From: a virus
IMG/VR virus record: IMGVR_UViG_3300042731_007874
DNA length: 64,000 bases
Strand: one strand, 5' to 3'
Shown here: positions 8,466 to 48,146 of the stretch, one piece after another
Numbering within the stretch: position 1 is the stretch's first letter
How the letters are laid out: every line of letters begins with the position of its first letter
The notes under the pieces: model-generated
What the model was told of the DNA's origin: nothing
What the model saw: the letters and a program-made list of their open reading frames with translations, nothing else
Database searches by the model: none
Translations under genes and position numbers: made by a program

Positions 8466-8894
8466 TTAGTTTTCTTTTAAAACTTTAACGAATTCTAATC
8501 TTCTACAAACAGCTTGTGTAAGATTATATTTTTTATTTACTCTATTATTATCGACAGCAACAATATCTTCTCTTCTAACCCGAAATTTTACAATTACATC
8601 GCAAGCACAAATTTTATATATTTTGGCTGCTTTTAAGGAAGTATAGACATGGAGGCCTTTATTTATTGCTTGCTTTTCTAATTCTATTTGAGTTGGCTTA
8701 GAAGGTCTATCCACTTGATATACTTTCTGTTTGTTAAAATCCCAAGCAAAATTACGCCTAAATACAGATATATAATGACCTAAACACTCTTTCTCTAAGA
8801 TTTTATAAACATAAGCGAACTTCTTCCTATTACCAAACCATTTCTTTAGATCTTTTTTATTTTGTTTTTGATCTAATTTAATTTTTAAACACAT
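8466..8894 (-). CDS. MCL-family paralog 1 (subfamily A)
   Basis: MCL..KWFGNRKKFAYVYK..GLHVYT..KFRV..DIVA..QAVC.RLEF. Confidence 0.9.
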   Translation of the reverse strand: MCLKIKLDQKQNKKDLKKWFGNRKKFAYVYKILEKECLGHYISVFRRNFAWDFNKQKVYQVDRPSKPTQIELEKQAINKGLHVYTSLKAAKIYKICACDVIVKFRVRREDIVAVDNNRVNKKYNLTQAVCRRLEFVKVLKEN

Positions 8895-8909
8895 TAGTTT
8901 CTCCTTGTC

Positions 8910-9305
8910 TTAGACAACTTTTACGAATTCTAATCTTCTACAAACCGCTTCTTTGTGAATGTTGTTTATGGCCACTATGTCTTCTGCTTTTACTCGAAAC
9001 TTGACAATTTTATCAGATTCTTCTCTCCAGTTTTTAGCTTTTTCTAGATTAATAAAGACATGAATTCCAATATCTATCTGACCATATTCTAGTTCTTCTT
9101 TAGTTGGTTGGTTAGGTCTGTCTGCTTCAAAAGTCTTCTGGTTATCGAAGTCCCAGGTAAAAGAATAATGAATCCAAGATCTATAGAAATCTTCATCTTC
9201 CCATTTCTGAAGAATTTTATAAACAAAGATCTCTTTTCGATTTTTGATAAAAGTTTTAAGTTCTTTTTTATTATCTTTTTGGCTATAATGGATATCTAAA
9301 CACAT
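8910..9305 (-). CDS. MCL-family paralog 2 (subfamily B)
   Basis: MCL..EIFVYK..YRS..PTKEEL..GIHVF..EAVC. Confidence 0.9.
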   Translation of the reverse strand: MCLDIHYSQKDNKKELKTFIKNRKEIFVYKILQKWEDEDFYRSWIHYSFTWDFDNQKTFEADRPNQPTKEELEYGQIDIGIHVFINLEKAKNWREESDKIVKFRVKAEDIVAINNIHKEAVCRRLEFVKVV

Positions 9306-9533
9306 TTTATTTCCTTTTATTCTTCTTATTAACCAATAATTATATTGAAATCGCCAAAATAAAATTCATTTTCCATATCACAATTAATTGGTACTGATAA
9401 TTCATCTCGGACACCAGCTAAGACAGATTCTTCATCAAGCTTAACTTCTCTACGTTCGTAATATTTATTTGTGATCTTGTTTATGATCCAATATTCTAGT
9501 TTTAAAGTTCCATTAATTTCCATATTAGCTCCT

Positions 9534-9944
9534 TTAATCTTCAATAATTTTGACAAAGGTTAGCTTAGTACAAACAGCTTCACGATGACTATTATTTACA
9601 GCAACTATATCTTCTTTGTTTGCGCGAAATTTCACAATTGCCTCACCAAAATATATTTGATGTCTTTTGGCTTCTTTGAAAGAAGTATAAACATGAAGAC
9701 CTTTATTTATCTTTTTAAAACTCAATTCATATTCAGTAGGAGTATTAGGTCTGTTTTCTTGATATATTTTCTGTTCTTTAAAATGCCAAGTAAAATAATC
9801 AGGAAACCAGATAGATCTATAAAAAGACTCACCTGAATAATTTCGCAAAATCTTATAGACATAGGCGAACTTTTTTCTAGACCCGAACCATTTCTTTAGA
9901 TTTTTTTCGTTTTGGATTTGATCTGGCTTAATACGCAAACACAT
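9534..9944 (-). CDS. MCL-family paralog 3 (subfamily A)
   Basis: KWFGSRKKFAYVYK, YRS, GLHVYT, EAVC. Confidence 0.9.
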   Translation of the reverse strand: MCLRIKPDQIQNEKNLKKWFGSRKKFAYVYKILRNYSGESFYRSIWFPDYFTWHFKEQKIYQENRPNTPTEYELSFKKINKGLHVYTSFKEAKRHQIYFGEAIVKFRANKEDIVAVNNSHREAVCTKLTFVKIIED

Positions 9945-9959
9945 TGTTTTTTCTCTTTC

Positions 9960-11099
9960 TTAAGGAAGTCTAATATTTAGTTCTTTTAAACATTTATTAA
10001 TTTCTTCACTTGGGCCAAGATATTTTCCTGATGAATCTGAAATTTTTATAGTCTTTTTGTTATTAACTTTGGTTAATTTAATTACAATATTAAGAGGTTC
10101 TACTCCTTCAATATCGTTAGTAAGGTTAGTGCCAATTCCAAACTTTGGTGTAATCCAAGGCTTGTCTTTTAGATAACCTAGAATTTTACTAATTTTATTT
10201 ATATTTAGCGCGTCTGAAAAAATAATTTCTACGGGTTTCTTATTAAAAGTATTAGTAACTAGATCTATATATTCGAAAGGAGATCCAGAGTCTTGTCTAA
10301 ATGAAAGATTTTCTCCTAAAATAGGATCATTTTTAGACATACGAAAGAAAGAAGCTGAAGAGAAAGTATCTGTCAAGATTGTATTACTATGTTTGAAGGT
10401 TTCTTTCCATCTATCAATTGCAATATTATATGCTTTCTTATATCCATTTTTAGCCGCCTCGTACATATATAGTTCATGAGGCTGAGTTCCTACAATGGGT
10501 TTATTAAAGGTCATTCCCATTAAAAGATTACTTGTTGGACAATTATAAATTTGGTTAATTTGTTTTTGTACTTCTTTCGAATATCGGCGTCTCGTGCCAA
10601 ACTCAGAAAAAGAAATTGAATTTTCAAGAAAAACTTTTTTATTTAGTGCTTTTCTACTAGCCTTTATTAAAACCTTATCTAAACTTTCTGTAGAATTATG
10701 TTTATTGTAAACTTCTGATATGATTGCCATTAGTGGAACTTCTAGAAGAGTACAGTCATGCCAATATCCTTTTATGGATAAAGAAAGATTTCCAGAAATA
10801 TTTGTAATATTTATATCTACAGAAGAATTTTTAAAGTTAAAGTATTTAAGATAGGTTAAATATTGACTTGGGAAAAGATTTAGAAATCTTAGATAAGATA
10901 GTTCACAAGAGTCTAATCTCATAAATTTAATAAAATCATGAATTTCTTGCTTTATTTCTGTATACATCTCACTTGTAAATTTAGTTTTTCCTCTATTGAT
11001 AAAATTAAATTCTACAATGTCATTTTCTCCATATTTAATTGCATACCAATGGATAAAAAATTTATATAGATCATTATCTAGTAAAGATGTAATAATCAT
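9960..11099 (-). CDS. pncB: Nicotinate phosphoribosyltransferase
   Basis: SLLDNDLYKF, EFGTRRR, GTQPHE, RQDSG, FSDAL, FGIGTNLTND, NIVIKL, KISD. Confidence 0.92.
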   Translation of the reverse strand: MIITSLLDNDLYKFFIHWYAIKYGENDIVEFNFINRGKTKFTSEMYTEIKQEIHDFIKFMRLDSCELSYLRFLNLFPSQYLTYLKYFNFKNSSVDINITNISGNLSLSIKGYWHDCTLLEVPLMAIISEVYNKHNSTESLDKVLIKASRKALNKKVFLENSISFSEFGTRRRYSKEVQKQINQIYNCPTSNLLMGMTFNKPIVGTQPHELYMYEAAKNGYKKAYNIAIDRWKETFKHSNTILTDTFSSASFFRMSKNDPILGENLSFRQDSGSPFEYIDLVTNTFNKKPVEIIFSDALNINKISKILGYLKDKPWITPKFGIGTNLTNDIEGVEPLNIVIKLTKVNNKKTIKISDSSGKYLGPSEEINKCLKELNIRLP

Positions 11100-11110
11100 T
11101 TCATTACCTT

Positions 11111-12040
11111 TTAAAAGTCAGTTGTTTTTGCTAGCTGCATCCCTTTTGCGGTTAATTCTTCAATAAAATCTTCTCCAAGACTTTCATAACCAGCAACAGA
11201 AGAGCTTGCATCTGTGAGTAGGACTATTTTCTTGATATGATCCTTCGTAAATTCATTAGAAAGATCTCGAACAGTGTTTGCTAAACAATGACTAAGAGCT
11301 TCTCCTGCCAATAAAATTAAATCTGCTTCTTTTAAAGCTCGGATTAGTCTTGTATTTAGTTGAGTTGTAGGATCAGATAGATCTTCTACTTCTGCCTTTA
11401 TGGCACTATAGTGTTCAACAAAAGGATTTAATCCTTTATTAATAAAGTTTATGTTATTCTTTGTTTTTAAGATCCATTCATTTAAAGATTCGTTTATGCA
11501 ATCTGTGATTGTTGCTCCAGAAGTTCCATGAAGGCAATGTTCTGGCCAGATACAAAGAGGGTATCTACCTTTTCTTTCTAGTTCTTTTGCATACTGAAGC
11601 ATTATTGATCGTAAAGAGGATATTGTAGGAGTCCAAATTCCTTCTTCTATGTTTGAAGAAGTAATAATAGTAGAAGGATCTGGATTTTTTCCTTCAGAAT
11701 TTTTCCACCAGATAGGATGACTTATATCCATTTTATGGTGTTGGTCTAGAGTAACAGAGATATCTGAAAGATCTTTTCCCATTCTTTTAATCATTTCAGA
11801 AAGTCTTTTCATATCTTCATCCGCGCCGCCAACATAAAGACTTCCGGTTGGATCACAAAAATCTCTTTGTGGATCAATTAATAATAGATGAATCTTTTCC
11901 ATTGTTTTTTCTTTGTTTTTGTTTTTGTTGTCTGGATCTTCAGAACAATATGAACACTCATGAGCCCAACCACATCTTCCACCATTTGAAAGCCAAGTAG
12001 ATGACTTAGGACATGATTCTAAATTATATTTATAGGGCAT
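11111..12040 (-). CDS. pncA: Nicotinamidase (isochorismatase/cysteine hydrolase family); real start may be MEKIHLL at 11902
   Basis: LLIDPQRDFC, WPEHC..G, KG, AGEALSHC; adjacent to pncB. Confidence 0.85.
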   Translation of the reverse strand: MPYKYNLESCPKSSTWLSNGGRCGWAHECSYCSEDPDNKNKNKEKTMEKIHLLLIDPQRDFCDPTGSLYVGGADEDMKRLSEMIKRMGKDLSDISVTLDQHHKMDISHPIWWKNSEGKNPDPSTIITSSNIEEGIWTPTISSLRSIMLQYAKELERKGRYPLCIWPEHCLHGTSGATITDCINESLNEWILKTKNNINFINKGLNPFVEHYSAIKAEVEDLSDPTTQLNTRLIRALKEADLILLAGEALSHCLANTVRDLSNEFTKDHIKKIVLLTDASSSVAGYESLGEDFIEELTAKGMQLAKTTDF

Positions 12041-12041
12041 C

Positions 12042-12458
12042 TTAATTTTTTACTATTTCAACAAATTCTAATCTAGTACAAACTAGTTCTTCAGAACTAA
12101 ACTGATGATAGAGCTTATTCTCAACAGCAACAATATCTTCATCAGAAACCTTGAATTTTGCAATTTCTTCACCTCTCATATAATCTGTAAAAATTTTGGC
12201 AACTCTAAAAGAAGTAAAAACATGAAGTCCCTTCCATTTTAGTTCTTCTTTAGTGGGTTTAGAAGATCTATTGACTTTAAATATTTTCTGTTTATTAAAG
12301 TCCCAAATAAAGTTTGGGAAATGAATAGATCTATAAAAACTTTCGTCTTGTTTTTTCCCTAAGACTTTATAAACGTATGCGAATTTAGTTCTTCGCCCGA
12401 ACCATTTTTTGAGATCTTTGTTGTTTTCTTTTTGATCTTGTTTGATATATAAACACAT
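12042..12458 (-). CDS. MCL-family paralog 4 (subfamily A)
   Basis: KWFGRRTKFAYVYK, YRS, GLHVFT, EELVC. Confidence 0.9.
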   Translation of the reverse strand: MCLYIKQDQKENNKDLKKWFGRRTKFAYVYKVLGKKQDESFYRSIHFPNFIWDFNKQKIFKVNRSSKPTKEELKWKGLHVFTSFRVAKIFTDYMRGEEIAKFKVSDEDIVAVENKLYHQFSSEELVCTRLEFVEIVKN

Positions 12459-15325: not shown

Positions 15326-15730
15326 TTAAATTACAAAAACTTTAACAAATTCCAATTTAGTACAAACAGCTTGTTTAGAATTGTTGTCTATTGCAACAAT
15401 GTTTTCTTTAAGTACTTTAAGTTTTATAATTATCTCATCAGGATATTTATTTTTCTTCGCTTCTCTGGGAGAAATATAGACATGAAGCCCTTTATCGATT
15501 GCCCCATAATCTAATTCGTCTTTAGTTGGTTTTAAAGGTCTATCTACTTGAAATACTTTTTGTTCCTTAAAATTCCAAATGAATTCAGAATGATATGGGG
15601 ATCTCCAATAATTCTCATTTGGTCGGTTATAAAGAAGTTTATAAACATAAGCAGATTTTTTACGAGATTCGAACCATTTCTTAAGATCTCTTTCGTTTTG
15701 TTCTTGATCTGAGCTAATTAATAAACACAT
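15326..15730 (-). CDS. MCL-family paralog 6 (subfamily A)
   Basis: KWFESRKKSAYVYK, WRS, GLHVY, KQAVC. Confidence 0.9.
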   Translation of the reverse strand: MCLLISSDQEQNERDLKKWFESRKKSAYVYKLLYNRPNENYWRSPYHSEFIWNFKEQKVFQVDRPLKPTKDELDYGAIDKGLHVYISPREAKKNKYPDEIIIKLKVLKENIVAIDNNSKQAVCTKLEFVKVFVI

Positions 15731-15748: not shown

Positions 15749-16288
15749 TTATTTATATTTTACTGAGTGGATATAGATCTTTCCTCCACATTGAGTACAA
15801 TATTTAATAGCTGATTTTATTGCCATTGTAATTGCCTGACGTCCTTCGGTTTTTTCTTTAGCTAAAACAAAAAGTGCTCCTAGAGCAACTTCACCGCCTT
15901 GTCCCGCTGTACTAAAATTATCTTTACAGTTAATTAAGTATAGAGAATCTGATATTTCAAATATACCAAGAGGACAAATTAATAAAAGAGTAAAAGATTC
16001 TTGTCCTTCACTTATTCCATATGAAACATTTCTCTCTTCTAGTTCTAATTGAAGTAAATCTCTAATATCTTTTAGATCTTCAGTAGATATTATCTTTTTT
16101 GGTAGAAGATCTAGTTCTTCCAATATATTGCCAATTCTATATGAACCTGCATATCCAATTGTATAATTACTCTTCTTTATTAGTTTAGAACCGTAGTCTT
16201 GTTTAGTGGAAAAGTTTGTTCCAACAGAATCAGAACCTATCCAATAGGTTTTTGTTTTTAGGTCTTTATATGTGGCAATTATTGTCAT
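15749..16288 (-). CDS. Proteasome/HslV-like Ntn-hydrolase protease subunit
   Basis: Thr2 nucleophile (MTIIA), GSDS, K, GYAG, AGQGG..ALGAL. Confidence 0.75.
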   Translation of the reverse strand: MTIIATYKDLKTKTYWIGSDSVGTNFSTKQDYGSKLIKKSNYTIGYAGSYRIGNILEELDLLPKKIISTEDLKDIRDLLQLELEERNVSYGISEGQESFTLLLICPLGIFEISDSLYLINCKDNFSTAGQGGEVALGALFVLAKEKTEGRQAITMAIKSAIKYCTQCGGKIYIHSVKYK

Positions 16289-16289: not shown

Positions 16290-16715
16290 TTAATTTTCTA
16301 GAACTTTAACAAATTCCAATTTAGTACATACCAGTTCATTGAGTTTATATTTGTCATAAATACAATGGTTCTGAATAGCAACGATATCTTCTCTCTTTAC
16401 GCGAAATTTTACAACTACCTCGTCAGGATCTGGATAAACTTTTAGGGTTTCTAGATCAGTATAAACATGAAGTCCAAAGTTTATGTATCTTCTTTTTAGC
16501 TCGTTTTCAGTAGGTTTAAGATCTCTAACTACTTCATATACTTTTTGTTTCTTGAAATTCCAGATAAAGTGTTGATAATGTTTAGATCTATAAAAGTCTT
16601 CATCTGGATACTTTTTTAAAATCTTGTAAACATAGGCAAACTTTTTACGAGATCCAAACCACTTATTTAAGTCTTTTTCATTTTTTTCTTGATCTGATTC
16701 AATCCATAAACACAT
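16290..16715 (-). CDS. MCL-family paralog 7 (subfamily A)
   Basis: KWFGSRKKFAYVYK, YRS, GLHVYT, NELVC. Confidence 0.9.
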   Translation of the reverse strand: MCLWIESDQEKNEKDLNKWFGSRKKFAYVYKILKKYPDEDFYRSKHYQHFIWNFKKQKVYEVVRDLKPTENELKRRYINFGLHVYTDLETLKVYPDPDEVVVKFRVKREDIVAIQNHCIYDKYKLNELVCTKLEFVKVLEN

Positions 16716-18266: not shown

Positions 18267-18581
18267 TTAATAAAGAGACACTATTTTAATATTAAGTTTT
18301 TCTGCTATTTTTTTACAAGCAGGACATGGATTTATAGGAGATATTTTTCCCCTCTTAGAAGTTCTACATATCAGTATAGTTTTTATTCCTTTTTGCTTCG
18401 CTAGTTTAAATAACTGCATCTCGGCGTGGATCCCACCGCCTTTATGACGAAATCTTGGAATATTCATTGCTCGCGCCACGATTTGACCATCTTTATTTAA
18501 ACCAATTGCAGAAACTCTAAATTTACAAATAGACTGTAAACATTTCTGTTTTCCTATCTCTGTTAGTTCTTTTATTGTCAT
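18267..18581 (-). CDS. Zn-dependent cytidine-deaminase-like protein
   Basis: IHAEMQ and PCPAC motifs. Confidence 0.8.
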   Translation of the reverse strand: MTIKELTEIGKQKCLQSICKFRVSAIGLNKDGQIVARAMNIPRFRHKGGGIHAEMQLFKLAKQKGIKTILICRTSKRGKISPINPCPACKKIAEKLNIKIVSLY

Positions 18582-19006
18582 TACTCGATTACCTTAACAA
18601 ATTCTAGCTTGGTACAAATTAATTCAAGAAAACTATAATTAGGAATAGATCTATTTTCAATAGCAACAATATTTTCTTTATTAACGCGAAATTTTACAAC
18701 TACTTCATCACAATAAATTTTTTCTTTCTTGGCTGTTTCAAGATTAACATAGACGTGAAAACCTTTATGGACTCTTGCTGTTTCTAGTTCCCATTCAGTA
18801 GGCTTATTAGATCTATCTTCTTGATATGTTTTAGTTTTATTAAAATCCCATATGAATTCAAAAACAGGAGATCTAAAAAGCCCCTTCTTATGAGTAGGCC
18901 ATTTACGCAACCTTTTATAAACATATGCGAATTTAGTCCGAGACCCGAACCACCTGTTTAGATCTTTTTCATTTTTTTCTTGATCTCGTTGAATTAATAG
19001 ACACAT
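18581..19006 (-). CDS. MCL-family paralog 9 (subfamily A)
   Basis: RWFGSRTKFAYVYK, FRS, GFHVY, LELIC. Confidence 0.9.
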   Translation of the reverse strand: MCLLIQRDQEKNEKDLNRWFGSRTKFAYVYKRLRKWPTHKKGLFRSPVFEFIWDFNKTKTYQEDRSNKPTEWELETARVHKGFHVYVNLETAKKEKIYCDEVVVKFRVNKENIVAIENRSIPNYSFLELICTKLEFVKVIE

Positions 19007-19021: not shown

Positions 19022-20299
19022 TTATGAAATCTCTTCTAGATCCACATATTGATCATCATTTTTTCTGATATTTTCTAATTCGCAGAATTCATCACTTTTC
19101 CACTTAAAGAAGTCTATTAAGAGAGGATGTTCTACTCGAACAACAACTCCTTCAATTGGATGTGTCTTTTCTATTGGATCGGCTCCTGCTGCATATAATC
19201 TACACTTTTCTACAAGATCTATCTTATTTTGCAGAACAAAAGTTTCTAAATGAGGAACAGTTTTAAATCCTAGTTGTCCAGCTCTTCTTACCATTTGTGG
19301 CCAGGACAAATCTATTTCATATCCATCAAGACTAGTATAAGTTATTCGATAGATATAAATATCATATTTCTGTCCTAAATCTCCTCCTTTGTCAGTAGAA
19401 CATCCATATGAGAAAACAATATTTTTTCCATATTGTTTAGTTAAATCTTTATTTTCTGTATTATAGACCCCCATTAAGGGAATATCATTATCTTGATATC
19501 CAACAATCTCATAATATAGGGTTTCTCCTTTATGGAGACCAACTGATTTAATCTTTCGGTGAATGATATCTCTAAAATCTGTTTTTTTGTAATAACTGTC
19601 TTCTATCTTATTAACAAAGGTAACTCTTCTAGAACCGGAAACATATTTCCATTCGGGTTTTTTGAACTTATTAACTAAGTTCCAGAACCAATTTTTTCCT
19701 CTGACAGAAGATAGATGACGACCAGTACGGCCGCTAGTTCCATGAAGCTTTGTAGTTATTATGATAATTGCATCTTCTGGAATTCTTTTAATATTTGTTC
19801 TTAGCTGACTTGTATCAAAGTGTTGCTTAAAGCCAGGGAAATCAATTGAAATCTTAGCTTTTTTCTTCTGCTTTTTATTTCCCATTTGTCGACGGGTAGC
19901 TGGAGTGTAATACTTCTCGCATAACAGATGTCCATTAATATGAGTTATTTCGTCTCCATTTTTAAGTTTATTTGGGCCGCACCAGGCAAAAGATTCTATT
20001 GGTTGCCAAAATCCGTTAGAATATTCTCCTCTTAGTTTAATGGTCTCTACTTTTCTGTTAGGCCGAAAAAATCCTCCCATTGGTTCATTTGTTGAAGGAT
20101 CTTTTCTATAAAGCCGGGTACTCATACAATGTTCATGGCTTAATTGTCCATCAGTAGGAAAGTAAATTCCTAAATCCCCTTCTTGAAATTCTTTGCTAAT
20201 GATAATTTGGTAATTAGCGACCTGGGCTAAATTCAGTTTATCAGCATTTGGATGAGACCGGACATTCTTTAGTTTACATACAACTGCTTTATATGCCAT
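19022..20299 (-). CDS. RNA ligase (Rnl2/DRB0094-like) with N-terminal OB fold
   Basis: HPNADKL, KLRGEYSNG, KLHGTS (motif I), YYEIVG, EGVVVR, KWKS. Confidence 0.88.
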   Translation of the reverse strand: MAYKAVVCKLKNVRSHPNADKLNLAQVANYQIIISKEFQEGDLGIYFPTDGQLSHEHCMSTRLYRKDPSTNEPMGGFFRPNRKVETIKLRGEYSNGFWQPIESFAWCGPNKLKNGDEITHINGHLLCEKYYTPATRRQMGNKKQKKKAKISIDFPGFKQHFDTSQLRTNIKRIPEDAIIIITTKLHGTSGRTGRHLSSVRGKNWFWNLVNKFKKPEWKYVSGSRRVTFVNKIEDSYYKKTDFRDIIHRKIKSVGLHKGETLYYEIVGYQDNDIPLMGVYNTENKDLTKQYGKNIVFSYGCSTDKGGDLGQKYDIYIYRITYTSLDGYEIDLSWPQMVRRAGQLGFKTVPHLETFVLQNKIDLVEKCRLYAAGADPIEKTHPIEGVVVRVEHPLLIDFFKWKSDEFCELENIRKNDDQYVDLEEIS

Positions 20300-23229: not shown

Positions 23230-23640
23230 TTAGTTTTCTAAAACTTTTATAAAAGTTAATTTAGTACAAACCGCTTCATGATATCCATTGTTAACAGCAA
23301 CAATATCTTTTCTCTCAACTCTGAATTTTGCAATTGTTTCAGATCCTTCATGAATTTCACGAAAATACCTAGCCATGTTAAGGTGAGTATAGACATGAAG
23401 ACCTTTTTCTATTTGACTATTATAGAGTTCGTCTTTGGTAGGTTTGTTAGGTCTATCTACTTGATATATTTTTTGTTTTCTAAAATCCCACTCAAATTCA
23501 GGACGATAAAAGGATCTATAGAAATTTTCATATAGTCTCCTTATTAGAACTTTATAGACAAATATATTTTTCCTATTACCAAGAAAATCTTGAAGATCTT
23601 CTTCATTTTGTTCTTGATCATACGAAATATGTAAGCACAT
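23230..23640 (-). CDS. MCL-family paralog 11 (subfamily B)
   Basis: DFLGNRKNIFVYK, YRS, GLHVYT, HEAVC. Confidence 0.9.
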   Translation of the reverse strand: MCLHISYDQEQNEEDLQDFLGNRKNIFVYKVLIRRLYENFYRSFYRPEFEWDFRKQKIYQVDRPNKPTKDELYNSQIEKGLHVYTHLNMARYFREIHEGSETIAKFRVERKDIVAVNNGYHEAVCTKLTFIKVLEN

Positions 23641-23641: not shown

Positions 23642-24142
23642 CTAGTCTCCTATTCTTGTAGACCCATATAAAACTAGTCTTTTACCTGTCATTCTTAAAT
23701 AAGCTTCATTAGCAGTTAAGTTTAATTTAGCTGCAAAGTTTTTAAGATGTTTGATCCAGTTTGTGTAATTATAAGCATTTCTAAATTCAATATTAGAAAC
23801 AGTTGGTTTTACACAACATGGTACTACTGCATACGGGGTTTTTCTTCTCGCGGCCTCGGCAATAATAACATCAGTTGCTTCATCTGGGTGCATTCCTACA
23901 AGAAGATCAAACTCTTCTTCAATGTTCCTATCGAAATATCTATATTGATACTGAAACCTATTTGGTCTATTTCTTCTACCTTTTCTCTTATCAAAGGTTG
24001 TTACATTATAACCATAAGATCTAAGAGCTGTTTGTAAATATCCTTTTCCTCCCGCAATATCTGCGACTTTTGGATATTTCTCTGGGGGAAAGTTATCCTT
24101 AATAAATTTAGCAAACAAGTTAAATCTTCTAGAATCTCCCAT
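23642..24142 (-). CDS. SAM-dependent methyltransferase-like protein
   Basis: VADIAGGKG (motif I), GMHPDEATD, VPCC. Confidence 0.7.
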   Translation of the reverse strand: MGDSRRFNLFAKFIKDNFPPEKYPKVADIAGGKGYLQTALRSYGYNVTTFDKRKGRRNRPNRFQYQYRYFDRNIEEEFDLLVGMHPDEATDVIIAEAARRKTPYAVVPCCVKPTVSNIEFRNAYNYTNWIKHLKNFAAKLNLTANEAYLRMTGKRLVLYGSTRIGD

Positions 24143-32005: not shown

Positions 32006-32024
32006 AATTTCTCCTTTTGGTTTA

Positions 32025-32651: not shown

Positions 32652-33574
32652 AATCCAGCCTCTTCACATTTAGCAATTGCATCAATTACAACAGGAACAC
32701 CTGCTTCTCTAAACTGATTGCCGATTTCAATCAGCTTATCATAGTTTGAATAGTTTGCTACTGTCTTTAGCTCATTCCCTTTTGCATTATTTGTACTATT
32801 AAGTGGAATAAGTTTAACAGTAAACTTGTCACCTCGAAGCCCCATTTTCTTTAGCTTTCCTACAGAAACTTCTACTCCTTGCATAACAATAAAATTTAAT
32901 GTAACTGTTCGGCTTGTTATTTTTTGTTTGTTCACCTCTGATACTATTTCAGGCAGAGTTATTACATCCGCGCCGCCAAATAACTCTTTTCTCTTATTCT
33001 CGTCTGTTGAATTACAAGAAATTTGTAAATGAAGTCTTCCATCATAAGTAGATTCTTTAAAATCTATTACTTGGCTTAACACATTTGCTTTTCGGGGAAG
33101 TATTGTATTAAAGCAAGGAAGCCATTTAAAGTCACGTCCTTGATGTTCTGATATTTGAGGTAGAAGTTTCATTGCATCAAGAACATTTTCTACATTCCAT
33201 GCAGGCTCGCCCATTCTAGCAAACCCTATCTTTACTTTGTTGCTTTGAGTAACATAAGGAGTATTTTTAAGTATACTAATAACTTGATCTAGGATTTCAT
33301 CTCGTGTGAGATTTCCCTTAAAAGGTAAAGGGGCAACATCACAAAACTGACAATTATGAATACATCCACGTTGTGTACTTACTGTTAGTAACCATTTTTC
33401 TTTATAGGGAACAAGATGTTTCCATATTACTTGTGGATCTTGAGTCTCTCTTACTATCTTATGAAGCTTGCCGTCTACTGCGACGTCTCTCATTTCAGTA
33501 GATTCAATTATGTAACCGTTCAAGTCACTAATAAAGATTCTACCACTAGGTAGATAGAGTACATCTTTAATCAT
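32618..33574 (-). CDS. RlmN/Cfr-like radical SAM enzyme
   Basis: STQRGCIHNCQFC, ARMGEP, LQIS, KLIPLN, C-terminal CGQL. Confidence 0.8.
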   Translation of the reverse strand: MIKDVLYLPSGRIFISDLNGYIIESTEMRDVAVDGKLHKIVRETQDPQVIWKHLVPYKEKWLLTVSTQRGCIHNCQFCDVAPLPFKGNLTRDEILDQVISILKNTPYVTQSNKVKIGFARMGEPAWNVENVLDAMKLLPQISEHQGRDFKWLPCFNTILPRKANVLSQVIDFKESTYDGRLHLQISCNSTDENKRKELFGGADVITLPEIVSEVNKQKITSRTVTLNFIVMQGVEVSVGKLKKMGLRGDKFTVKLIPLNSTNNAKGNELKTVANYSNYDKLIEIGNQFREAGVPVVIDAIAKCEEAGLCCGQLAQIYL

Positions 33575-34004
33575 TGTTTACCTTCTCCACGTTCTTTATC
33601 CATTTTGGGACTGGTTGCCATTTTCTTGCCATATTATCAATAGTTGATTTAGGAACTCCATGGATATTTCTTTCAACACAGATTTTTGGATCTGCAAAGA
33701 CTTCAATAATTTCACAGCTATATCCCATTGTTTCTGCGATTCTGTAATAAGGAATCCATTCAGTTGTTGTAACATTTGTATTGTCTATTACAATAAGTTT
33801 TTCTTTGAGAGTGGTAATAAAATACAAAAATGTCTGTAAACAATGTATGTGTGCTTCTCCAATAAGACCAGGATCAAATTTGTATTCTCCATGCTTATTT
33901 ATGAAATACTTATCAGCAGAACATATTACTGCATCTGGGTAGTTCTTTTTAACAAAAGTACTTTTCCCAGCGCCTGGCAAACCTCTCATAATTATTACTT
34001 TCAT
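33567..34004 (-). CDS. P-loop kinase (AAA_33/polynucleotide-kinase-like)
   Basis: MRGLPGAGKST Walker A, DNTN, RNIHGVP. Confidence 0.85.
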   Translation of the reverse strand: MKVIIMRGLPGAGKSTFVKKNYPDAVICSADKYFINKHGEYKFDPGLIGEAHIHCLQTFLYFITTLKEKLIVIDNTNVTTTEWIPYYRIAETMGYSCEIIEVFADPKICVERNIHGVPKSTIDNMARKWQPVPKWIKNVEKVNND

Positions 34005-35276: not shown

Positions 35277-35534
35277 TTAATCTTCTCTTATAATCTCAAC
35301 GAATTCTAGTTTAGTATAAACTAACCGTTGAAAATTATGTTTTTGTTTAGAACAACCGTTCTCAACAGCAACAATATTTTCTGCCTTGACCTTGAATTTA
35401 ATAATTGGTTCATCCTCTTCTTTCCAATACTTGGCTTCTTCTAAATTAGTGTAGGCATGAAGTCCTTTACAGATGAGGTAATAGCAAAGCTCTTTCTCGT
35501 TTTGCTCTTGATCCTCTAAAATCCATAGACACAT
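35277..35534 (-). CDS. MCL-family paralog 15 with an in-frame internal deletion
   Basis: MCLW...NEKEL joined directly to ...KGLHAYT; about 55 codons shorter than full copies. Confidence 0.85.
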   Translation of the reverse strand: MCLWILEDQEQNEKELCYYLICKGLHAYTNLEEAKYWKEEDEPIIKFKVKAENIVAVENGCSKQKHNFQRLVYTKLEFVEIIRED

Positions 35535-39383: not shown

Positions 39384-39800
39384 TTAGTTTACGACTCTGA
39401 CAAAAGTCAGCTTACGACAGACAAGACTTTCAAAATTCAGCCCAAAGCAACAATTATTCTCAACAGCAACAACGTCTTTCTTATCCACTTTAAATTTTAC
39501 AATTACTCCGTCACAATAGAATCTCTGAAGCTTGGCAGACTCTAAATTAGTATAGACGCAATATCCTTTATAAATTTCTCCCTTCTTCAATTCTTCTTCA
39601 GTTGGCCTTGAAGATCGATCAATCTGGAATACTTGTTGTTTAGAGAAATCCCAAATACAAGACTGATAAGAAAACCTATAATAATTTTTACTCGAACATT
39701 CTCTTAGAACTTTATAAACATAAACTTCTTGTTGATCTCCAAGAAACTCTTGAAGATCTTCTTTATTGTCTTTTTGACTTGACTTAATTTCTATTGACAT
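39384..39800 (-). CDS. MCL-family paralog 16 (divergent, subfamily B)
   Basis: EFLGDQQEVYVYK, PTEEEL, GYCVYT (His lost), SLVC. Confidence 0.85.
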   Translation of the reverse strand: MSIEIKSSQKDNKEDLQEFLGDQQEVYVYKVLRECSSKNYYRFSYQSCIWDFSKQQVFQIDRSSRPTEEELKKGEIYKGYCVYTNLESAKLQRFYCDGVIVKFKVDKKDVVAVENNCCFGLNFESLVCRKLTFVRVVN

Positions 39801-40912: not shown

Positions 40913-41314
40913 TTAATTTGAAAACTCTACAAAAGTCAGCTTTTTGCAAACTAATTCTTCGTGAGCCTCATCAACAGCCACAATGTCTTCTCGTTCAACT
41001 TCGAATTTAACAGTTTTTCTACCATAGAAATCCCAACCCATAAAGTCGTCTTTGAAAGAAGCATAGACATGAAGTCCTTCCGCTATCTCTCCAGATTCCC
41101 GCTCTTCTTCAGTCGGTTTAGAAGATCTATTTATTTCAAATATATTGTGTTTATTGAAATCCCAAATAAATTCCCCATGACGTGGAGATCTATAAAAATT
41201 TTCCCATGAACTTTTTACTACAATTTTATAAACAAAGACCTTATCACGATTACCAACAAAATTTTGAAGGATTATATCGTTCTCTTCTTGGCTTTTGTTA
41301 ATGCTTAGAGGCAT
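40913..41314 (-). CDS. MCL-family paralog 17 (divergent, subfamily B); start corrected to MPLSINK
   Basis: NFVGNRDKVFVYK, YRSP, GLHVY, EELVC. Confidence 0.85.
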   Translation of the reverse strand: MPLSINKSQEENDIILQNFVGNRDKVFVYKIVVKSSWENFYRSPRHGEFIWDFNKHNIFEINRSSKPTEEERESGEIAEGLHVYASFKDDFMGWDFYGRKTVKFEVEREDIVAVDEAHEELVCKKLTFVEFSN

Positions 41315-42015: not shown

Positions 42016-42759
42016 TTACTTTATATGTCCTTCTGGACATATACCCACTCCAAGAAGACTAAGAGCTTGTAAGGCAGGGTTATTTGTTTCTTTTGTCCCG
42101 AGCGTTTCTTTCTCTATCGCGATATTAAGCTGTCGCCTTCGTGCTACAATTTCTTTATGTCCCATGCCAGCCATGTCATAGAACTTTTCTATATTATCCA
42201 TTACTTTGACAAGGCCATCAAGGTGGCCATTATCAATAGCAACTCTGTCTGCTTCCAGTTCTATTTTGATGGTTGACTCCGCACCAAACATCCTCTTGAA
42301 CATATTCAAGGGATTAGGATTATCCAAGTGACCACACTTGATGTGACCTATCTCATGAGCGAGAATTGCTTCTTGTATTTCTTTGTCCGCCGCCATAAAG
42401 GCGTCGTTGACAACAATAACAAACTCACCATTAATTCTCCCAACAAGAGCACTTGGCATATCCTTCTGTCCTTGCAGTACAAATATACCATTGAAGTGCT
42501 TGAGGTAGACCTTCCTACCATTAATAGTCGTTTCTCCAATGTCTCGCATAGAGAGAAGCCCTTCTACTCCTTGTTCCTCTATAAGCGCCTTAGTATCAAC
42601 ATAGACCTTATAGTTCATCTTGACCTGGCCTACCATAAAGTCCTTAACAGGGCTAATCTTCTCTACTACGTCCCTCACTGCATATTTTGTTCTATCCAAC
42701 ATGATACATTCTCCATTTATCCTACATATATATATAGGATAGGTTATGTAGACATACAT
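42016..42759 (-). CDS. M48-like zinc metallopeptidase
   Basis: AILAHEIGH ... ELEAD. Confidence 0.8.
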   Translation of the reverse strand: MYVYITYPIYICRINGECIMLDRTKYAVRDVVEKISPVKDFMVGQVKMNYKVYVDTKALIEEQGVEGLLSMRDIGETTINGRKVYLKHFNGIFVLQGQKDMPSALVGRINGEFVIVVNDAFMAADKEIQEAILAHEIGHIKCGHLDNPNPLNMFKRMFGAESTIKIELEADRVAIDNGHLDGLVKVMDNIEKFYDMAGMGHKEIVARRRQLNIAIEKETLGTKETNNPALQALSLLGVGICPEGHIK

Positions 42760-42802
42760 TATGTATATCTACTACATTACCATTACTTATTGTTTATTTA
42801 GA

Positions 42803-43351: not shown

Positions 43352-44026
43352 CTATATAGGTTTTTCTTTATTCTCTGCTCTTTTTCTTCTCATATAGCAC
43401 TTTGCACATAAATTACGACTCAGGTGTTGCTTTTCTTCTCCACAGTCTTCACAGATAATAAGATTCTTCTTTTTTTCTATGTAATCTTTTTTATAACATT
43501 TTTGACAAAGGCCAAGACCTTCATGGTATTTTTCTTCTCCGCAAGATTTACAGACAATTAACCTTCTCTTGTTTGGGTTTTTTCTAGACAGCCTAGAGTA
43601 ACAAGCATTACATAGGTCTTTAGTGAAAGGGTGTTTTTCTTCTCCACATTCTTTACAGATAATAACCTTAGACTCTCGTTGGTGTTTTCTATAGCAAGAG
43701 TCGCATAAACCTCTGCCTTTCGGAGGTCTATCTCTTTTGCATCTTTTGCAATTTATTAATTTTCTATCTGGATGATATTGTGTCTTTATTTTTTGTCGTT
43801 TTATCTCAACATGGATATTTTTATGACACTCCTCGCAAACAACCATGCATTTAGATAGTTCTTCCTCTCTCCTCTCTTGGCTCCACAACCAAACTTCTGA
43901 AGCAACTTTCTGACTGGGGTCTTTGTGATGGATCTGTAAAGACTCGCTAGATCCACAAATTTCACAGGGGCCGTGTTCTTGAAGCCAGTTTGTTTTTCGT
44001 TCGTTTCTTTTTTGTTTAGTATTCAT
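43352..44026 (-). CDS. HNH endonuclease-domain protein with tandem CxxC..LCxxCY zinc fingers
   Basis: CEICGS...IHHKDP...CEECH, then four CxxC...LCxxCY repeats. Confidence 0.8.
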   Translation of the reverse strand: MNTKQKRNERKTNWLQEHGPCEICGSSESLQIHHKDPSQKVASEVWLWSQERREEELSKCMVVCEECHKNIHVEIKRQKIKTQYHPDRKLINCKRCKRDRPPKGRGLCDSCYRKHQRESKVIICKECGEEKHPFTKDLCNACYSRLSRKNPNKRRLIVCKSCGEEKYHEGLGLCQKCYKKDYIEKKKNLIICEDCGEEKQHLSRNLCAKCYMRRKRAENKEKPI

Positions 44027-44351
44027 TAATACCTCCTAAAAAGAGGTTATCAGCTTATTCTCTAAGAGTCAAGGAGGGGGCAGCTAACCCTTGACCCCCA
44101 GGGATGTCCTGAATTACTTGCTAGGTATGTATAAAATTTTTCCCATTTTGCCCCCTATTAAGAAATTTATGTTATAGTATAAGTAACAGAACCCTCTAAG
44201 CCTCTCTTTGAAGCTCAATTCTAGAGGGTCTTTTATTATTCGGCATAATCTCCACCTTAATTCTCTAAAATCAAAGTTTTAAAAAATTTTCTCCTTGAAA
44301 CCGCCATATATAAGAAAAATTATTTTTCTACCAACCCGCCCAATAATAATA

Positions 44352-44380
44352 TTGACAATCATCTCTTGATGGCCTAATTT
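44352..44380 (+). promoter_or_regulatory. Sigma70-like promoter for the rightward genes
   Basis: TTGACA-N17-TAATTT upstream of 44412. Confidence 0.55.
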
Positions 44381-44640
44381 AAGGAAGTGAAGAATCAAGA
44401 AAGGATCACCAATGTTTGATGAAATGTTTGTTTCTCACATCCAACCAAACAAAGACTATATCCAATGTTCTCTTTATTCAGAATCCGGCCAAAACCTAGT
44501 TACCTGGGTTCTGAAAGAAACAGCCCACGAGGGAAAAGAAGTTAGACTAAAAGGATCAGATCAGACTTGGACAGTAAAGGAAGTTTACAAGAGTACTGTA
44601 AAGGGGAGTGTATTAATACAAATGAGGGATCAATATAAGT

Positions 44641-45283: not shown

Positions 45284-45473
45284 GATAGAAACAGAGAGTT
45301 TTACGGAACCGGAACCGAACATCGTCAAACAGCTTGATTGTTTAATTGTAAGTGATAATGAAGTAAACAAAAGTTATCCTTATGTTATTTCTTTGAGAAG
45401 AGACCGTTATAATACTTATCGGTTCTATGTTTTGTGTCGGTCTCGTATATTAATATAGAGGGAGCAAACAACA

Positions 45474-46175
45474 ATGAGAATAGAAACAGTAGAAGATTTC
45501 AAGAGGGCGTTATTAAGACTAGATGATATCTTTGATATCCCTATAGATGACCCCAGGAGGGATGAGAGGGCAGCTCTGATTGATGCAATTGAAGAATACG
45601 AAGACGAGCACTGTAGTATTCAACCTCCGACTGAGGAGGAAGCTAGGGCCTTTAGAAGAGAACAGGAGCTTCTCGTTGAGGATCGAGGTCTTCCTCTACC
45701 TGTTGAGGTTCCTCCAGTGCCATTAGTGTTGCCACCAAGAAAACAACATGAGTTTGATTTTTTTGATAAATCTCCTGATAATTTAAAGGCTGTTGAGGAT
45801 CGTTTAATGAAAGTAATAGAAGAAGCATGTCGAAACCAGAGGGAGTGTTTTATTAATAAAATAAAGGACTCTTTTGAAGAAATTGATAAGTTTGCTAGAG
45901 AAAACCAGGAAGAAATTTTTATTTTAAATGATTATCGGGGCTCTAAGGTCAACTCAGCGGAATATGCTGAATCTTGGATTCATAAAGACACGATTCGGTT
46001 GATTTACGACGAATATGAAAGAGGAGAAGACTATAGTCTTTATCCTTTTGATATTCCTATTAAATATATAAATAATTTAGATGGATGGTTAGAGGATTTA
46101 AGTAAGGAGAAAGAAGAGAGGGATAAAAAGAGAGAGGAAGAGAAGACTGAGGCTTCATTAGGGAGTGGAATATGA
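45474..46175 (+). CDS. Protein with a HigA-antitoxin-like N-terminal region fused to an unknown domain
   Basis: IETVEDFKRALLRLDDIF...ALIDAIEEYEDEH..I.PP resembles the HigA N-terminus; no HTH follows. Confidence 0.5.
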   Translation: MRIETVEDFKRALLRLDDIFDIPIDDPRRDERAALIDAIEEYEDEHCSIQPPTEEEARAFRREQELLVEDRGLPLPVEVPPVPLVLPPRKQHEFDFFDKSPDNLKAVEDRLMKVIEEACRNQRECFINKIKDSFEEIDKFARENQEEIFILNDYRGSKVNSAEYAESWIHKDTIRLIYDEYERGEDYSLYPFDIPIKYINNLDGWLEDLSKEKEERDKKREEEKTEASLGSGI

Positions 46176-46603
46176 AAGATTCAAATGTACCAAAACTAAG
46201 GTTTCCTTTGAGGGATTATTTACAGGATTATAATGAAGATCGTGATGTTGATCTTACATGTCAGACCATAAAGATGGTAAGAACTCGTAAAGAGCATGAT
46301 TGTCATTTTGGTCAAATAGATGGTAAATTACACATTATACCAAAGGGAGAGTTAGCGGTAAAAGACACTGCGTTGGTAGATCATGAATTTTGGGGAACTT
46401 GTTATACCTGTATTCCTTGTTTAGATAAATGGATAGCTGAGTTAAAAAGTGAGACTTGTGAATGTTGTGAATATTGGGATTTTAAGGACGAAGACGATTC
46501 TGATCAGGCTTTGTGTTTAAACCCCAGATCTAAAGAATATAAGAAATTAGTAAATTATGATTTCACTTGTAATTGTTTTAAGGACTGTGAATAAGGAGAA
46601 ATA

Positions 46604-47596
46604 ATGTCAATTGATTTTCCAAGAGCGTGGCAGCTAGCCAAAGAGACTAGTTTTGAAGACCATAATCCTAAGTGTAGTTATGCGCGGACCAAAGGGGGTT
46701 TACTTTGTGATTGTGAAGTTTTAACAAAACACCCAGAATATTTATCTGATGTTTTTTATGGAAAAGATGGTATTATAATAAGAAAGACCAAGAGAATGAT
46801 TAATTGGATTTGCCAAAGCAATTTATGTGACACGACAGGGCTGGAGCAAATTAAAGAAGTTTGCGAAGAAGATGGAGGCTGTTATGTTCCTTATACGGTA
46901 ATTCCTTTTGAGAATAATACTTCTGGATTTCCTGTTGATGGAATTAATGTTTTTTATGGATCGGTAACTTGGATCAACAAGCTTTCTGAAGAGAAGAGGG
47001 CTGGGTTATTCTTTGACAAGGAGAAGTTTACCTATCTTTACTGGGGAGAAAAATATAGGGATCTTTTGGTCAATGATGACTTTAAGGTTATTACTTTAAA
47101 AGAATTTGTAACTTCGAAAGAATATAACAACATAACGAGCCGAATGAACAGAGAAATCTTTTTTGTTAGACCAGCGGCCGATAATAAAGCCTTTGACGGA
47201 CATGTCTATCAATCATTTCAGGTATTAGATTCTATTGGAGGAGATCCCGATTATCTTTCGAGTTTGCCAATAATCATAGCTTCTCCAAAAATTATTCATT
47301 TAGAATATAGGTTGTTTTTTGTAAACGGTAAAGTTTCTTCTGCTTGCCAGTATAAGTACCGGGGAAGTCTGTCTGTAAGTAAGACAATTCCGCCAGATTT
47401 AATTCCTTGGGCAGAAGACCACCTTAAAGATTTTCATGATGTGTTTGTTGCCGATGTCGCCATTATTGAAGATAAAGAAGGGTTTAGTGGTTATCGGTTG
47501 CTTGAATTTGGCTGTGCAAATGCTGCGGGATTTTATGGGGTAGATGTTAAAAAAGTAACAAAAGATATTAATAAGTACTTAGGAGAATTAAGTTGA
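46604..47596 (+). CDS. ATP-grasp domain protein (R2K-like)
   Basis: FVRPA.DNKAFDG, EYRLFFVNG, FVADVA, LLEFG..N.AGFY. Confidence 0.75.
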   Translation: MSIDFPRAWQLAKETSFEDHNPKCSYARTKGGLLCDCEVLTKHPEYLSDVFYGKDGIIIRKTKRMINWICQSNLCDTTGLEQIKEVCEEDGGCYVPYTVIPFENNTSGFPVDGINVFYGSVTWINKLSEEKRAGLFFDKEKFTYLYWGEKYRDLLVNDDFKVITLKEFVTSKEYNNITSRMNREIFFVRPAADNKAFDGHVYQSFQVLDSIGGDPDYLSSLPIIIASPKIIHLEYRLFFVNGKVSSACQYKYRGSLSVSKTIPPDLIPWAEDHLKDFHDVFVADVAIIEDKEGFSGYRLLEFGCANAAGFYGVDVKKVTKDINKYLGELS

Positions 47597-47720
47597 AACA
47601 AGATCTTAAAGAAGAATTTAAAAGAATAGGGTCTATCTTATTAGGAATTTTATTTATATTATTTATGATGATTATATTTTATTCTATTTTTAATACTTTA
47701 ATATAAACAAGGAGAAGAGA

Positions 47721-48146
47721 ATGTGTTTATGGATTAAACAAGATCAAGAAGAAAATAAAAAGAATCTAAACAAATGGTTTGGATCTAGAAAAAGATTTGC
47801 ATATGTTTATAAAATTCTAAGAAAATGGCCAGAGGAAAACTTCTATAGATCTCCTGTTTATGATTTTAAATGGGATTTTAAAAAACAAAAAGTTTTTCAA
47901 GTAGATAGACCTAATAAACCAACCAAAGAAGAACTAAATTATGGAGAAATACATAAAGGACTCCATGTCTATACTTCTCTTAAGAAAGCTAAAGAAAACC
48001 AAAATTTTTCTTGCGATACAATAATTGAATTTAAAGTCTCTAAAGAAAACATCGTTGCGATTGAAATTAATTGGTCTGACAAAGAAGATAACTTTCAAGA
48101 ATTAGTTTGTCGAAAGTTAGAGTTTGTTAAGGTTGTTGAAAATTAA
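47721..48146 (+). CDS. MCL-family paralog 18 (subfamily A, plus strand)
   Basis: KWFGSRKRFAYVYK, YRSP, GLHVYT, QELVC. Confidence 0.9.
   Translation: MCLWIKQDQEENKKNLNKWFGSRKRFAYVYKILRKWPEENFYRSPVYDFKWDFKKQKVFQVDRPNKPTKEELNYGEIHKGLHVYTSLKKAKENQNFSCDTIIEFKVSKENIVAIEINWSDKEDNFQELVCRKLEFVKVVEN

Follow-up and report, generated by a model that had tools for sequence, protein, structure and literature searches.

Why would a phage carry one small gene many times over, and what might its products do? The question is raised by a 64,000-nucleotide stretch of viral DNA (hereafter the window), which corresponds to bases 56529-120528 of a 120.5-kb IMG/VR virus record (IMGVR_UViG_3300042731_007874), read on the minus strand. 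Copies of a single family of small proteins, the MCL family, are scattered through its non-structural accessory part, among genes for NAD (nicotinamide adenine dinucleotide) salvage and for macro-like, SLOG, RNA-ligase and kinase proteins. An initial annotation of this DNA, made from its letters, had proposed that the family might be a battery of enzymes of the ADP-ribosyltransferase (ART) fold. Overall, we favour, as probable though far from certain, the view that the MCL proteins are an old, maintained battery of host-directed or counter-defence effectors of the type of phage T4 RIIB, with a conserved, atypical and probably NAD-type pocket in common and with hypervariable loops.

A profile built from the copies and run against a six-frame translation of the window recovers 17 full-length MCL genes (E 1e-51 to 3e-67), together with one internally deleted copy and a 33-residue C-terminal remnant (Table 1); the 120.5-kb record, searched whole, gives matches at identical places and no others. 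The CheckV completeness of that record is about 63%, and a 184,481-bp contig that also carries the window proteins holds five further members (P0007, P0019, P0024, P0043 and P0057) not encoded in the window, so that the phage, of about 184 kb, carries at least 23 MCL copies. A Shine-Dalgarno sequence precedes the ATG of every copy by 6-10 nt, and the copies are packed in tight co-directional operons, often 1-17 nt from unrelated neighbours; these are therefore real genes. The order of motifs that had been described at the outset can be recognised, as VYK, YRS, G(L/F)HV(Y/F)T, IVKFxV..EDIV and (E)LVC..L.F, and a recount of the 18-row alignment of window copies returned exactly the earlier figures. 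With residues numbered as in copy 47721-48146, position 127 is Glu in 12 rows, Gln in three, Arg in two and Ser in one, and the His of the GxH motif is kept in 17 of 18, the exception being a Cys in copy 39384-39800 (below, copy 39384).

An AlphaFold2 model of copy 47721-48146, built with a 62-sequence alignment, is confident (scores in Table 1). Its N-terminal half consists of a short strand (3-4), a helix (9-20), a strand (26-34) and a mostly irregular stretch with short strands; its C-terminal half contains helix 69-74, strand 81-84, helix 87-92 and strands 99-107, 111-114, 127-130 and 132-138. The predicted structure has the split beta-sheet of the ART fold (SCOP d.166). In the top 50 of an exhaustive structure search, the matches belong almost exclusively to the ART superfamily, at low Z scores of 3.3-6.2: BC2332 (2aua; Z 6.2, root-mean-square deviation (rmsd) 4.8, 98 residues aligned), the Rhs toxin TreX (5.6), 9ld3, an ADP-ribose complex (5.5), Arr (5.3), diphtheria toxin (4.9), CNFy domain 4 and TreTu (both 4.8), and, lower down, PARP1/2/3/4/10/13/15/16, tankyrase, pertussis toxin, LT, PltA, Scabin, Tpt1, ParT and DarT. 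Only one row, EF-P with 51 residues aligned, is clearly outside the superfamily. A second structure search, over Foldseek's own candidates, gave the same ART picture; Foldseek against the PDB returned nothing significant (best E 0.43), the informative comparisons being those by VIA-align and against BFVD. BC2332-like, CC0527-like, AvrPphF and Tpt1/KptA proteins are families of the SCOP ADP-ribosylation superfamily d.166.1 (PMC3000352), and the site of BC2332 was matched to that of diphtheria toxin by ProFunc (PMC3024214).

The nearest relative of the family, not recognised in the initial annotation, is the C-terminal domain of RIIB. Foldseek comparison of the MCL model with BFVD returned, at probability 1.0, DUF7666 proteins as well as many RIIB-named proteins of T4-like, N4-like and other phages, and a structure search of the ESM Atlas gave DUF7666 at a template-modelling (TM) score of 0.67 and Phage_T4_rIIB (PF26926) at 0.64 over 118 residues. 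(The accessions of six of the BFVD neighbours begin with A0A292G, which may mean that they belong to a single phage proteome; in that case there is a second phage with several copies of the fold.) A hidden Markov model (HMM) search of 1.84 billion representative proteins yielded 113 matches, about 100 of them distant relatives, which are 110-170 aa long and come without exception from metagenomes or viruses; one match, P0067 (1246 aa), was rejected as a low-complexity repeat artefact. An alignment of 108 distant members matches residues 206-290 of T4 RIIB (HHalign 91%) and, still better, a profile of 121 RIIB C-termini (96.2%, E 2.2e-9). The motifs run in parallel, with FYAWKVV of RIIB answering to VYKIL of MCL, PR to DR, SRGLHVCS to KGLHVYTS, RVVKVKVHPRDVVSIP to IVKFKVxKEDIVAI and, in the last strand, RTCQYEVV to LVCRKLEFV; Lys31 and His82 of MCL answer to K215 and H257 of T4 RIIB. 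Because of these profile alignments and common motifs, the MCL protein is best read, at the level of sequence, as the RIIB C-terminal domain standing alone with an extra N-terminal strand.

An independent model of the RIIB C-terminal domain (T4-type), built from a 70-sequence alignment of IMG/VR loci (pLDDT 86), finds BC2332 (6.2), Arr (6.2; rmsd 3.7, 86 aligned), TreX (5.2), 9ld3 (4.8) and TreTu (4.7), followed by Scabin, diphtheria toxin, PARPs, pertussis toxin, Tpt1, MbcT, exotoxin A, Tne2 and an anti-CRISPR protein. Two predicted structures that are related at the profile level alone thus return one and the same list of ARTs, and in this respect the fold proposed in the initial annotation has stood up well. 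The MCL family, the RIIB C-terminal domain and DUF7666 form a phage-only superfamily, a very divergent branch of the ART fold, and that the MCL family is an RIIB homologue with an ART-like fold is, in our judgement, very likely.

Scans of the window copies against Pfam, PHROGs and NCBIfam gave no real match, and a search of PDB sequences with the family profile HMM found nothing at E up to 10; a Pfam scan of the 108 family members produced two matches, both weak and both to DUF7666 (E 0.013), and a search of the window and the 120.5-kb record with the DUF7666 model matched none of the copies. T4 RIIB itself has only helix-turn-helix (HTH) matches in the Pfam copy used, which lacks PF26926. Translated searches (tblastn) with an MCL protein and two distant members against 50,697 phage records, and a megablast search with 20 kb of the window, gave no match; a comparison of the family alignment with viral and metagenome contigs returned no relatives, the phage's own record possibly being masked there. 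As for function, RIIA and RIIB enable growth of T-even phages on RexAB hosts, and RIIB alone is toxic to E. coli and triggers a Lysobacter gasdermin system (PMC10312443); the Tmn defence ATPase is directly activated by T2 RIIB (10.64898/2026.03.01.708804); and RIIB has been read as a transcription factor from its HTH (PMC7824862). In the literature that we searched, nothing links RIIB to the ART fold and nothing mentions DUF7666.

What, then, has been conserved on this scaffold? Mean column identity across the family is only 14%, against which a handful of positions stand out among the 108 distant members: Gly80 is present in all 108, Lys31 and an aromatic residue at position 30 in 106 each, His82 in 105, Cys2 in 98, Arg63 in 96, Glu71 in 92, and Ala90 and Ala113 in 89 each. 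The VYK and GxH motifs fall on strands 1 and 2 of the model, where ARTs hold their NAD-binding residues. Mapping of ART positions, which is approximate since it uses simple offsets from the aligned ranges (PARP1 851 to model 20, tankyrase-2 (TNKS2) 1021 to 21, LT 4 to 28, cholera toxin 1 to 25), aligns Lys31 with the strand-1 His or Arg of these enzymes; the catalytic residues there, which we take to be PARP1 H862, tankyrase-2 H1031 and R7 of both LT and cholera toxin, each come to lie at model residue 31. The pair Y30-K31 presumably parallels Y-H of diphtheria toxin and Arr and Y-R of cholera and pertussis toxins. Likewise, we take K-G-L-H-V-Y-T to parallel K-G-F-Y-S-T-D of diphtheria toxin, and His82 would therefore stand at the place of the nicotinamide-stacking Tyr of H-Y-E enzymes. 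A His at this strand-2 place is also found in Tpt1 (the HVHLS motif of E. coli KptA), and where His82 is replaced, in six family members, the substitute is Tyr, canonical on strand 2 of ARTs, in four and Cys in two. The G80-x-H82 motif is followed by helix 87-92, which bears the conserved Ala90.

Position 127 behaves differently. Offsets taken at the C-terminal end put the catalytic Glu at model 123-124 for PARP1, tankyrase and LT alike, a few residues from Glu127; the latter is the first residue of strand 5, the place that the catalytic Glu has in ARTs. Glu is found there in 45 of 62 close relatives as well as in most window copies; among the distant members, it is present in eight of 108 (Ala in 57, Ser in 19), and T4 RIIB has Met. 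Given this distribution, Glu127 cannot be the catalytic residue of the family, and the Glu before the last strand that the initial annotation had envisaged as catalytic is not conserved beyond the close clade. Nor do strands 1 and 2 carry the classical residues: strand 1 has a near-invariant Lys and not the His or Arg of ARTs, and the strand-2 motif has His where Tyr or S-T-S was expected. The suggestion of diversified acceptor loops, made in the same annotation, is supported, since the most variable and indel-rich segments are 93-98 (entropy 3.6 bits), which follows the strand-2 helix, and 115-126 (2.7 bits), which just precedes strand 5, and these are the positions of the donor (PN/D) and acceptor (ARTT) loops of ARTs. 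A zinc site (Cys2, His82 and Cys130, with C252, H257, C259 and C299 in RIIB) was considered as a family feature and rejected; Cys130 is present in only 18 of the 108 distant members.

We judge a conserved, nucleotide-type pocket to be somewhat better than an even prospect. From the model, the predicted pocket has the better part of the chances of binding NAD+ or an ADP-ribose-type nucleotide; NAD-dependent transfer or hydrolysis may occur as well, although we would lean against it. In the mechanism that we propose, each copy would act in the cytoplasm as an effector that, like RIIB, is directed against some host component or defence system. The scaffold pocket, to which strand 1 would contribute the aromatic-Lys pair and strand 2 Gly80-x-His82, together with Arg63, Glu71 and an exposed Cys2, would occupy the place of the ART NAD cleft, and the hypervariable loops 93-98 and 115-126 would set target specificity. 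If catalysis occurs, it would use an atypical K-H(-E/x) set, closer to Glu-less ARTs of the Tpt1 and PARP10 type than to the Alt/Mod toxins, and copies without Cys2 and His82, such as copy 39384, would be binding-only.

Such a battery could be a recent duplication product or an old possession, and the phylogeny suggests the latter. A quick maximum-likelihood tree, built for 62 close family members, does not group the window copies together: there are 15 label changes for 17 rows, equal to shuffled labels, and the copies interleave with those from other metagenome contigs. Four pairings with other contigs are well supported by the Shimodaira-Hasegawa-like approximate likelihood ratio test (SH-aLRT): copy 39384 with P0038 (99; short branches, same substitutions), 40913 with P0049 (100), 27497 with P0023 (99) and 20317 with P0029/P0050 from other metagenome contigs (96). 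Because the window copies are unclustered and paired in this way, the expansion is older than the split from related phages, with individual paralogs probably maintained by selection and not recently duplicated. Turnover occurs as well, as the internally deleted copy and the C-terminal remnant show. Copy 39384 (Ser2, Cys82, Ser127) is a conserved variant and not a decaying gene, since its very close ortholog P0038 has identical substitutions. It thus fits the suggestion in the initial annotation that non-Glu copies might be inactive or binding-only, being also without Cys2 and His82.

Among about 106 distant relatives, 84 start with MCL and about 95 with MC. Leu3 and Ile5 are conserved hydrophobics and position 4 between them is hypervariable, and for this reason Cys2 is probably outward-facing, kept for function and not for packing. 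In P0069, the sole tandem two-domain protein found, the internal repeat has Ala in its place, and in RIIB, which carries the domain internally, nothing corresponds to it. Cys2 and His82 are both missing from copy 39384, from its ortholog and from P0064; overall, His82 is missing in three of 13 Cys2-less sequences compared with three of 151 that bear Cys2, from only two independent lineages. Chemically, a free cysteine at the N-terminus can trap aldehydes, for example open-chain ADP-ribose. It is conceivable, though we think it unlikely, that the RIIB C-terminal domain and the MCL family constitute a new catalytic ART clade with a Lys/His (plus N-terminal Cys) site, which would counter defence by NAD-dependent modification of host targets or by covalent capture of an ADP-ribose-type compound on the 1,2-aminothiol of Cys2, the 23 or more copies being a panel with differing targets.

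How do other explanations compare? The proposal in its most literal form, a battery of classical, active ARTs like Alt, ModA and ModB, with a basic residue in strand 1, S-T-S or Tyr in strand 2, Glu in strand 5 and the non-Glu copies dead, draws on the fold and the matching motif order, on the Glu at the first residue of strand 5 in 12 of 18 window copies and most close relatives, on the variable loop at the ARTT position and on the NAD salvage genes nearby. We consider it improbable, since Glu127 is replaced (mostly by Ala or Ser, and by Met in T4 RIIB) while Lys31 and His82 are near-invariant, which argues that the conserved function is independent of Glu127; moreover, neither the R-S-E nor the H-Y-E set occurs as such, HHalign comparison with ModA, ModB and Alt stays below 1%, and Pfam, PHROG and NCBIfam give no ART match. 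At the other extreme, nucleotide chemistry may have been lost altogether, leaving proteins that only bind others, whether host defence proteins or neighbouring phage enzymes, and that inhibit them or act as decoys or adaptors, with the conserved polar residues structural. This is doubtful, though several points favour it: non-catalytic ART-fold domains are common among the structural matches (PARP13, TASOR, CNFy domain 4, IcmQ), the Tmn defence protein binds RIIB directly (10.64898/2026.03.01.708804), copy 39384 without Cys2 and His82 is strongly conserved together with its ortholog P0038, hypervariable surface loops suit binding, and the copies are translationally coupled to many unrelated genes. 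What speaks against it is that Cys2, Lys31, Arg63, Glu71 and His82 remain near-invariant in a family of such low identity, as is typical of a ligand or catalytic site, that Cys2 adjoins a hypervariable and probably exposed position, and that the main replacement of His82 is Tyr, which suggests a stacking role.

Two further explanations start from the N-terminus. Cys2, a 1,2-aminothiol after removal of Met, might be the nucleophile and His82 its partner in an enzyme or trap unrelated to NAD transfer, with N-terminal nucleophile (Ntn) or SRAP/YedK-like chemistry on an ART-like scaffold; the prevalence of MC starts, the retention of Cys2 in the great majority of distant members, the Ala of the internal repeat in P0069 and the joint loss of Cys2 and His82 above expectation would all fit. 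RIIB, however, has the domain internally and without an N-terminal Cys, so that a shared function cannot need Cys2, and no Ntn or SRAP structure appears in any fold list; we regard this as quite improbable. That the proteins are packaged in the head and injected, the conserved N-terminus being a capsid-targeting leader as in T4 Alt, has in its favour only an analogy with other phage ART-fold paralog families and is, to our minds, scarcely credible. The T4 cleavage motif is (L/I)-x-E, and the consensus MCLxIxxDQE does not contain it; the first 10 residues are modelled within the fold (pLDDT 92, strand 3-4); and all MCL genes but one lie in the accessory arm, on the strand opposite the terminase-side genes. 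With a folded N-terminus, no L/I-x-E site and a non-late context, the leader was rejected.

The effector battery that we favour has weaknesses of its own, and these should be stated together. Neither sequence nor profile searches (Pfam, PHROGs, NCBIfam, PDB sequences, Alt/ModA/ModB, Tpt1) connected the family with ARTs of any kind; the pocket is a feature of the model, drawn from motif order and range offsets; we know of no active ART with Lys at the strand-1 position; the Glu of strand 5 is lost from most members beyond the close clade; and many ART-fold domains, several structural neighbours among them, are non-catalytic (PARP13, TASOR, CNFy domain 4). The role as an effector is transferred by analogy from RIIB genetics, that is, from action against RexAB and triggering of gasdermin and Tmn systems (PMC10312443; 10.64898/2026.03.01.708804), and the literature searched reports no ART activity for RIIB despite long study of T4. 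NAD salvage and macro genes, too, are widespread among large phages, and their proximity here may be fortuitous.

The setting of the copies is nevertheless compatible with an NAD-linked role. The window is AT-rich (GC 29-42%), and its genes form one long arm read leftward from the minus strand (about 140-44000) and another, read rightward, that begins at about 44400 and ends in the large terminase gene. A divergent transcription switch lies between them: long open reading frames (ORFs) are all on the minus strand to the left and all on the plus strand to the right, and the sign of the GC skew flips there. NAD-, nucleotide- and RNA-repair accessory regions have been described for large phages (PMC7824862). 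Here, PncB and the PncA-like gene form a two-step NAD salvage pair with MCL copies on both flanks, the macro-like and YAcAr/SLOG proteins belong to families that process ADP-ribose or nucleotide signals and are encoded close to MCL copies, and the RNA ligase, AAA_33 kinase and R2K ATP-grasp make up an RNA-repair or modification-type set in the accessory genes. The HslV-like gene, which may encode an N-terminal Thr nucleophile, is translationally coupled to an MCL copy. Elsewhere, two overlapping ORFs with weak radical-SAM or KamA/EpmB-like matches may be a frameshift-split gene or a two-part enzyme, and the roughly 400 residues between the two blocks of terminase matches are unexplained and could be an intein or an inserted domain.

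Table 1. Coordinates of MCL copies and other features of the window (E, expectation value; aa, amino acids; pLDDT, predicted local distance difference test; pTM, predicted template-modelling score; AF2, AlphaFold2)
Feature	Coordinates	Strand	Evidence
C-terminal MCL fragment, ~33 aa, decayed remnant	2770-2868	(-)	HMM positions 110-140, E 5e-9; also in whole-record search
MCL copy, 142 aa, Gln127	8466-8894	(-)	HMM E 2e-62; 18-row alignment
MCL copy, 131 aa	8910-9305	(-)	HMM E 1e-56; 18-row alignment
MCL copy, 136 aa, directly upstream of PncB	9534-9944	(-)	HMM E 8e-60; 18-row alignment
Nicotinate phosphoribosyltransferase (PncB)	9960-11099	(-)	NCBIfam E 3.5e-86
Nicotinamidase-like (PncA-like), 309 aa, only C-terminal half matches	11111-12040	(-)	E 6e-9
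MCL copy, 138 aa, 1 nt upstream of PncA-like gene	12042-12458	(-)	HMM E 4e-59; 18-row alignment
MCL copy, 141 aa	13764-14189	(-)	HMM E 6e-63
MCL copy, 134 aa, Gln127	15326-15730	(-)	HMM E 3e-59
HslV-like peptidase, starts MT(I)	15749-16288	(-)	phrog_1040, E 3e-15
MCL copy, 141 aa, 1 nt upstream of HslV-like gene	16290-16715	(-)	HMM E 9e-64
MCL copy, 133 aa	17536-17937	(-)	HMM E 3e-61
MCL copy, 141 aa, just downstream of RNA ligase gene	18581-19006	(-)	HMM E 4e-61
RNA ligase with PHA02142 OB domain	19022-20299	(-)	
MCL copy, 148 aa from MCL start, ORF open further upstream; Arg127; long insert in 115-126 loop	20317-20763	(-)	HMM E 8e-51; 18-row alignment
MCL copy, 136 aa, 1 nt downstream of methyltransferase gene	23230-23640	(-)	HMM E 8e-58
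Methyltransferase	23642-24142		
MCL copy, 144 aa, Gln127	25361-25795	(-)	HMM E 3e-60
MCL copy, 147 aa, 14 nt downstream of YAcAr/SLOG gene	27497-27940	(-)	HMM E 1e-61
YAcAr/SLOG protein	27955-28383	(-)	Pfam E 1e-13
Macro-like protein	29894-30361	(-)	phrog_335 'phosphatase' E 4e-23; weak DarG macro match
Nucleoside deoxyribosyltransferase-like	31673-32086		
Radical-SAM pieces (overlapping ORFs 32618-33574 and 32025-32651)	32025-33574	(-)	
AAA_33 kinase	33567-34004	(-)	
MCL copy, 144 aa	34831-35265	(-)	HMM E 1e-58
Internally deleted MCL copy, 85 aa; first 20 residues and GLH onward retained; Arg127, Tyr130	35277-35534	(-)	HMM positions 1-20 and 70-140, E 9e-23; 18-row alignment
Divergent MCL copy, 138 aa; Ser2, Cys82, Ser127; candidate non-catalytic	39384-39800	(-)	18-row alignment; residue table
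MCL copy starting MPL (Pro for Cys2); ORF extendable to 41374	40913-41314	(-)	HMM E 1e-53
M48/M78 (IrrE-like) metallopeptidase-like and multiple-zinc-ribbon proteins, start of leftward arm	42016-42759 and 43352-44026	(-)	
Divergent transcription switch	~44030-44410		ORF strands; GC skew
R2K ATP-grasp	46604-47596	(+)	
MCL copy, 141 aa, only (+)-strand one; modelled copy	47721-48146	(+)	HMM E 3e-67; AF2 pLDDT 92.9, pTM 0.86
Large terminase gene, 1063 aa	59830-63021	(+)	Terminase matches in two blocks, residues 73-234 and 654-972

Regardless of whether the pocket is catalytic, the relationship with RIIB gives these genes a wider interest. The rII genes were central to classical genetics, and RIIB is known only as a T4 factor needed on RexAB hosts and as a gasdermin and Tmn trigger; the present analysis adds that its conserved domain, together with a large unannotated stand-alone family, is predicted to have an ART-like fold. 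The invariant residues (Lys, Gly-x-His, Arg and Glu) provide a concrete hypothesis of an NAD-type pocket, one whose point mutants are testable in T4. With at least 23 copies, old and individually conserved paralogs, and hypervariable loops, this is among the larger effector batteries seen in a phage, and it suggests that one scaffold has been re-aimed at many host targets. If the catalytic clade were true, it would provide the first biochemical activity for the rII system; if the domain is non-catalytic, it would still be a clear viral pseudo-ART binding scaffold.

Finally, the family can be placed among known systems. With the mono-ADP-ribosyltransferases Alt, ModA and ModB of T4 (R-S-E enzymes), to which the initial annotation had compared it, the MCL family has in common that it is phage-encoded, the broad fold class and plausible early, host-directed functions; it differs in having no R-S-E triad, in size and in not being in a late or packaging context, and the comparison finds no sequence relation, the MCL and RIIB C-terminal profiles aligning with the three at HHalign probabilities of 0.1-0.9%. 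Minimal ART-fold proteins (BC2332/2aua, the rifampin ART Arr, the Rhs toxins TreX/TreTu and the NAD lobe of Tpt1/KptA) resemble it in predicted fold, the NAD chemistry of MCL being putative. MCL proteins differ from them in showing no sequence or profile similarity, in having Lys and not His or Arg in strand 1, no conserved acid in strand 5, and a conserved insert of about 45 residues between strands 1 and 2; alignment with a 98-sequence Tpt1 profile (PF01885) gave 0.25%, which places the family outside Tpt1/KptA, the two-lobed RNA 2'-phosphotransferases with an R-H-R-R tetrad. DUF7666 (PF24703) phage proteins, structural neighbours in both BFVD and the ESM Atlas, are related at the superfamily level only. 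Compared with T4 RIIB, the MCL proteins are lone domains (131-148 aa) that lack the HTH-bearing N-terminus and the middle region, begin with an additional MCL strand, which bears the invariant Cys, mostly have Glu and not Met at position 127, and number at least 23 where RIIB is single; the 120.5-kb record, which covers about two-thirds of the genome, contains no match to rIIA or to a full-length rIIB. It is nonetheless the C-terminal domain of RIIB (PF26926; about residues 190-312) that they most resemble, in the aromatic-K of strand 1, the (D/P)R, the G-L-H-V of strand 2, the V-K-x-K-V-x-x-x-D-V-V motif, the final C-containing strand and the predicted order of secondary structure, and in their ART-like structural neighbours and phage-only distribution.

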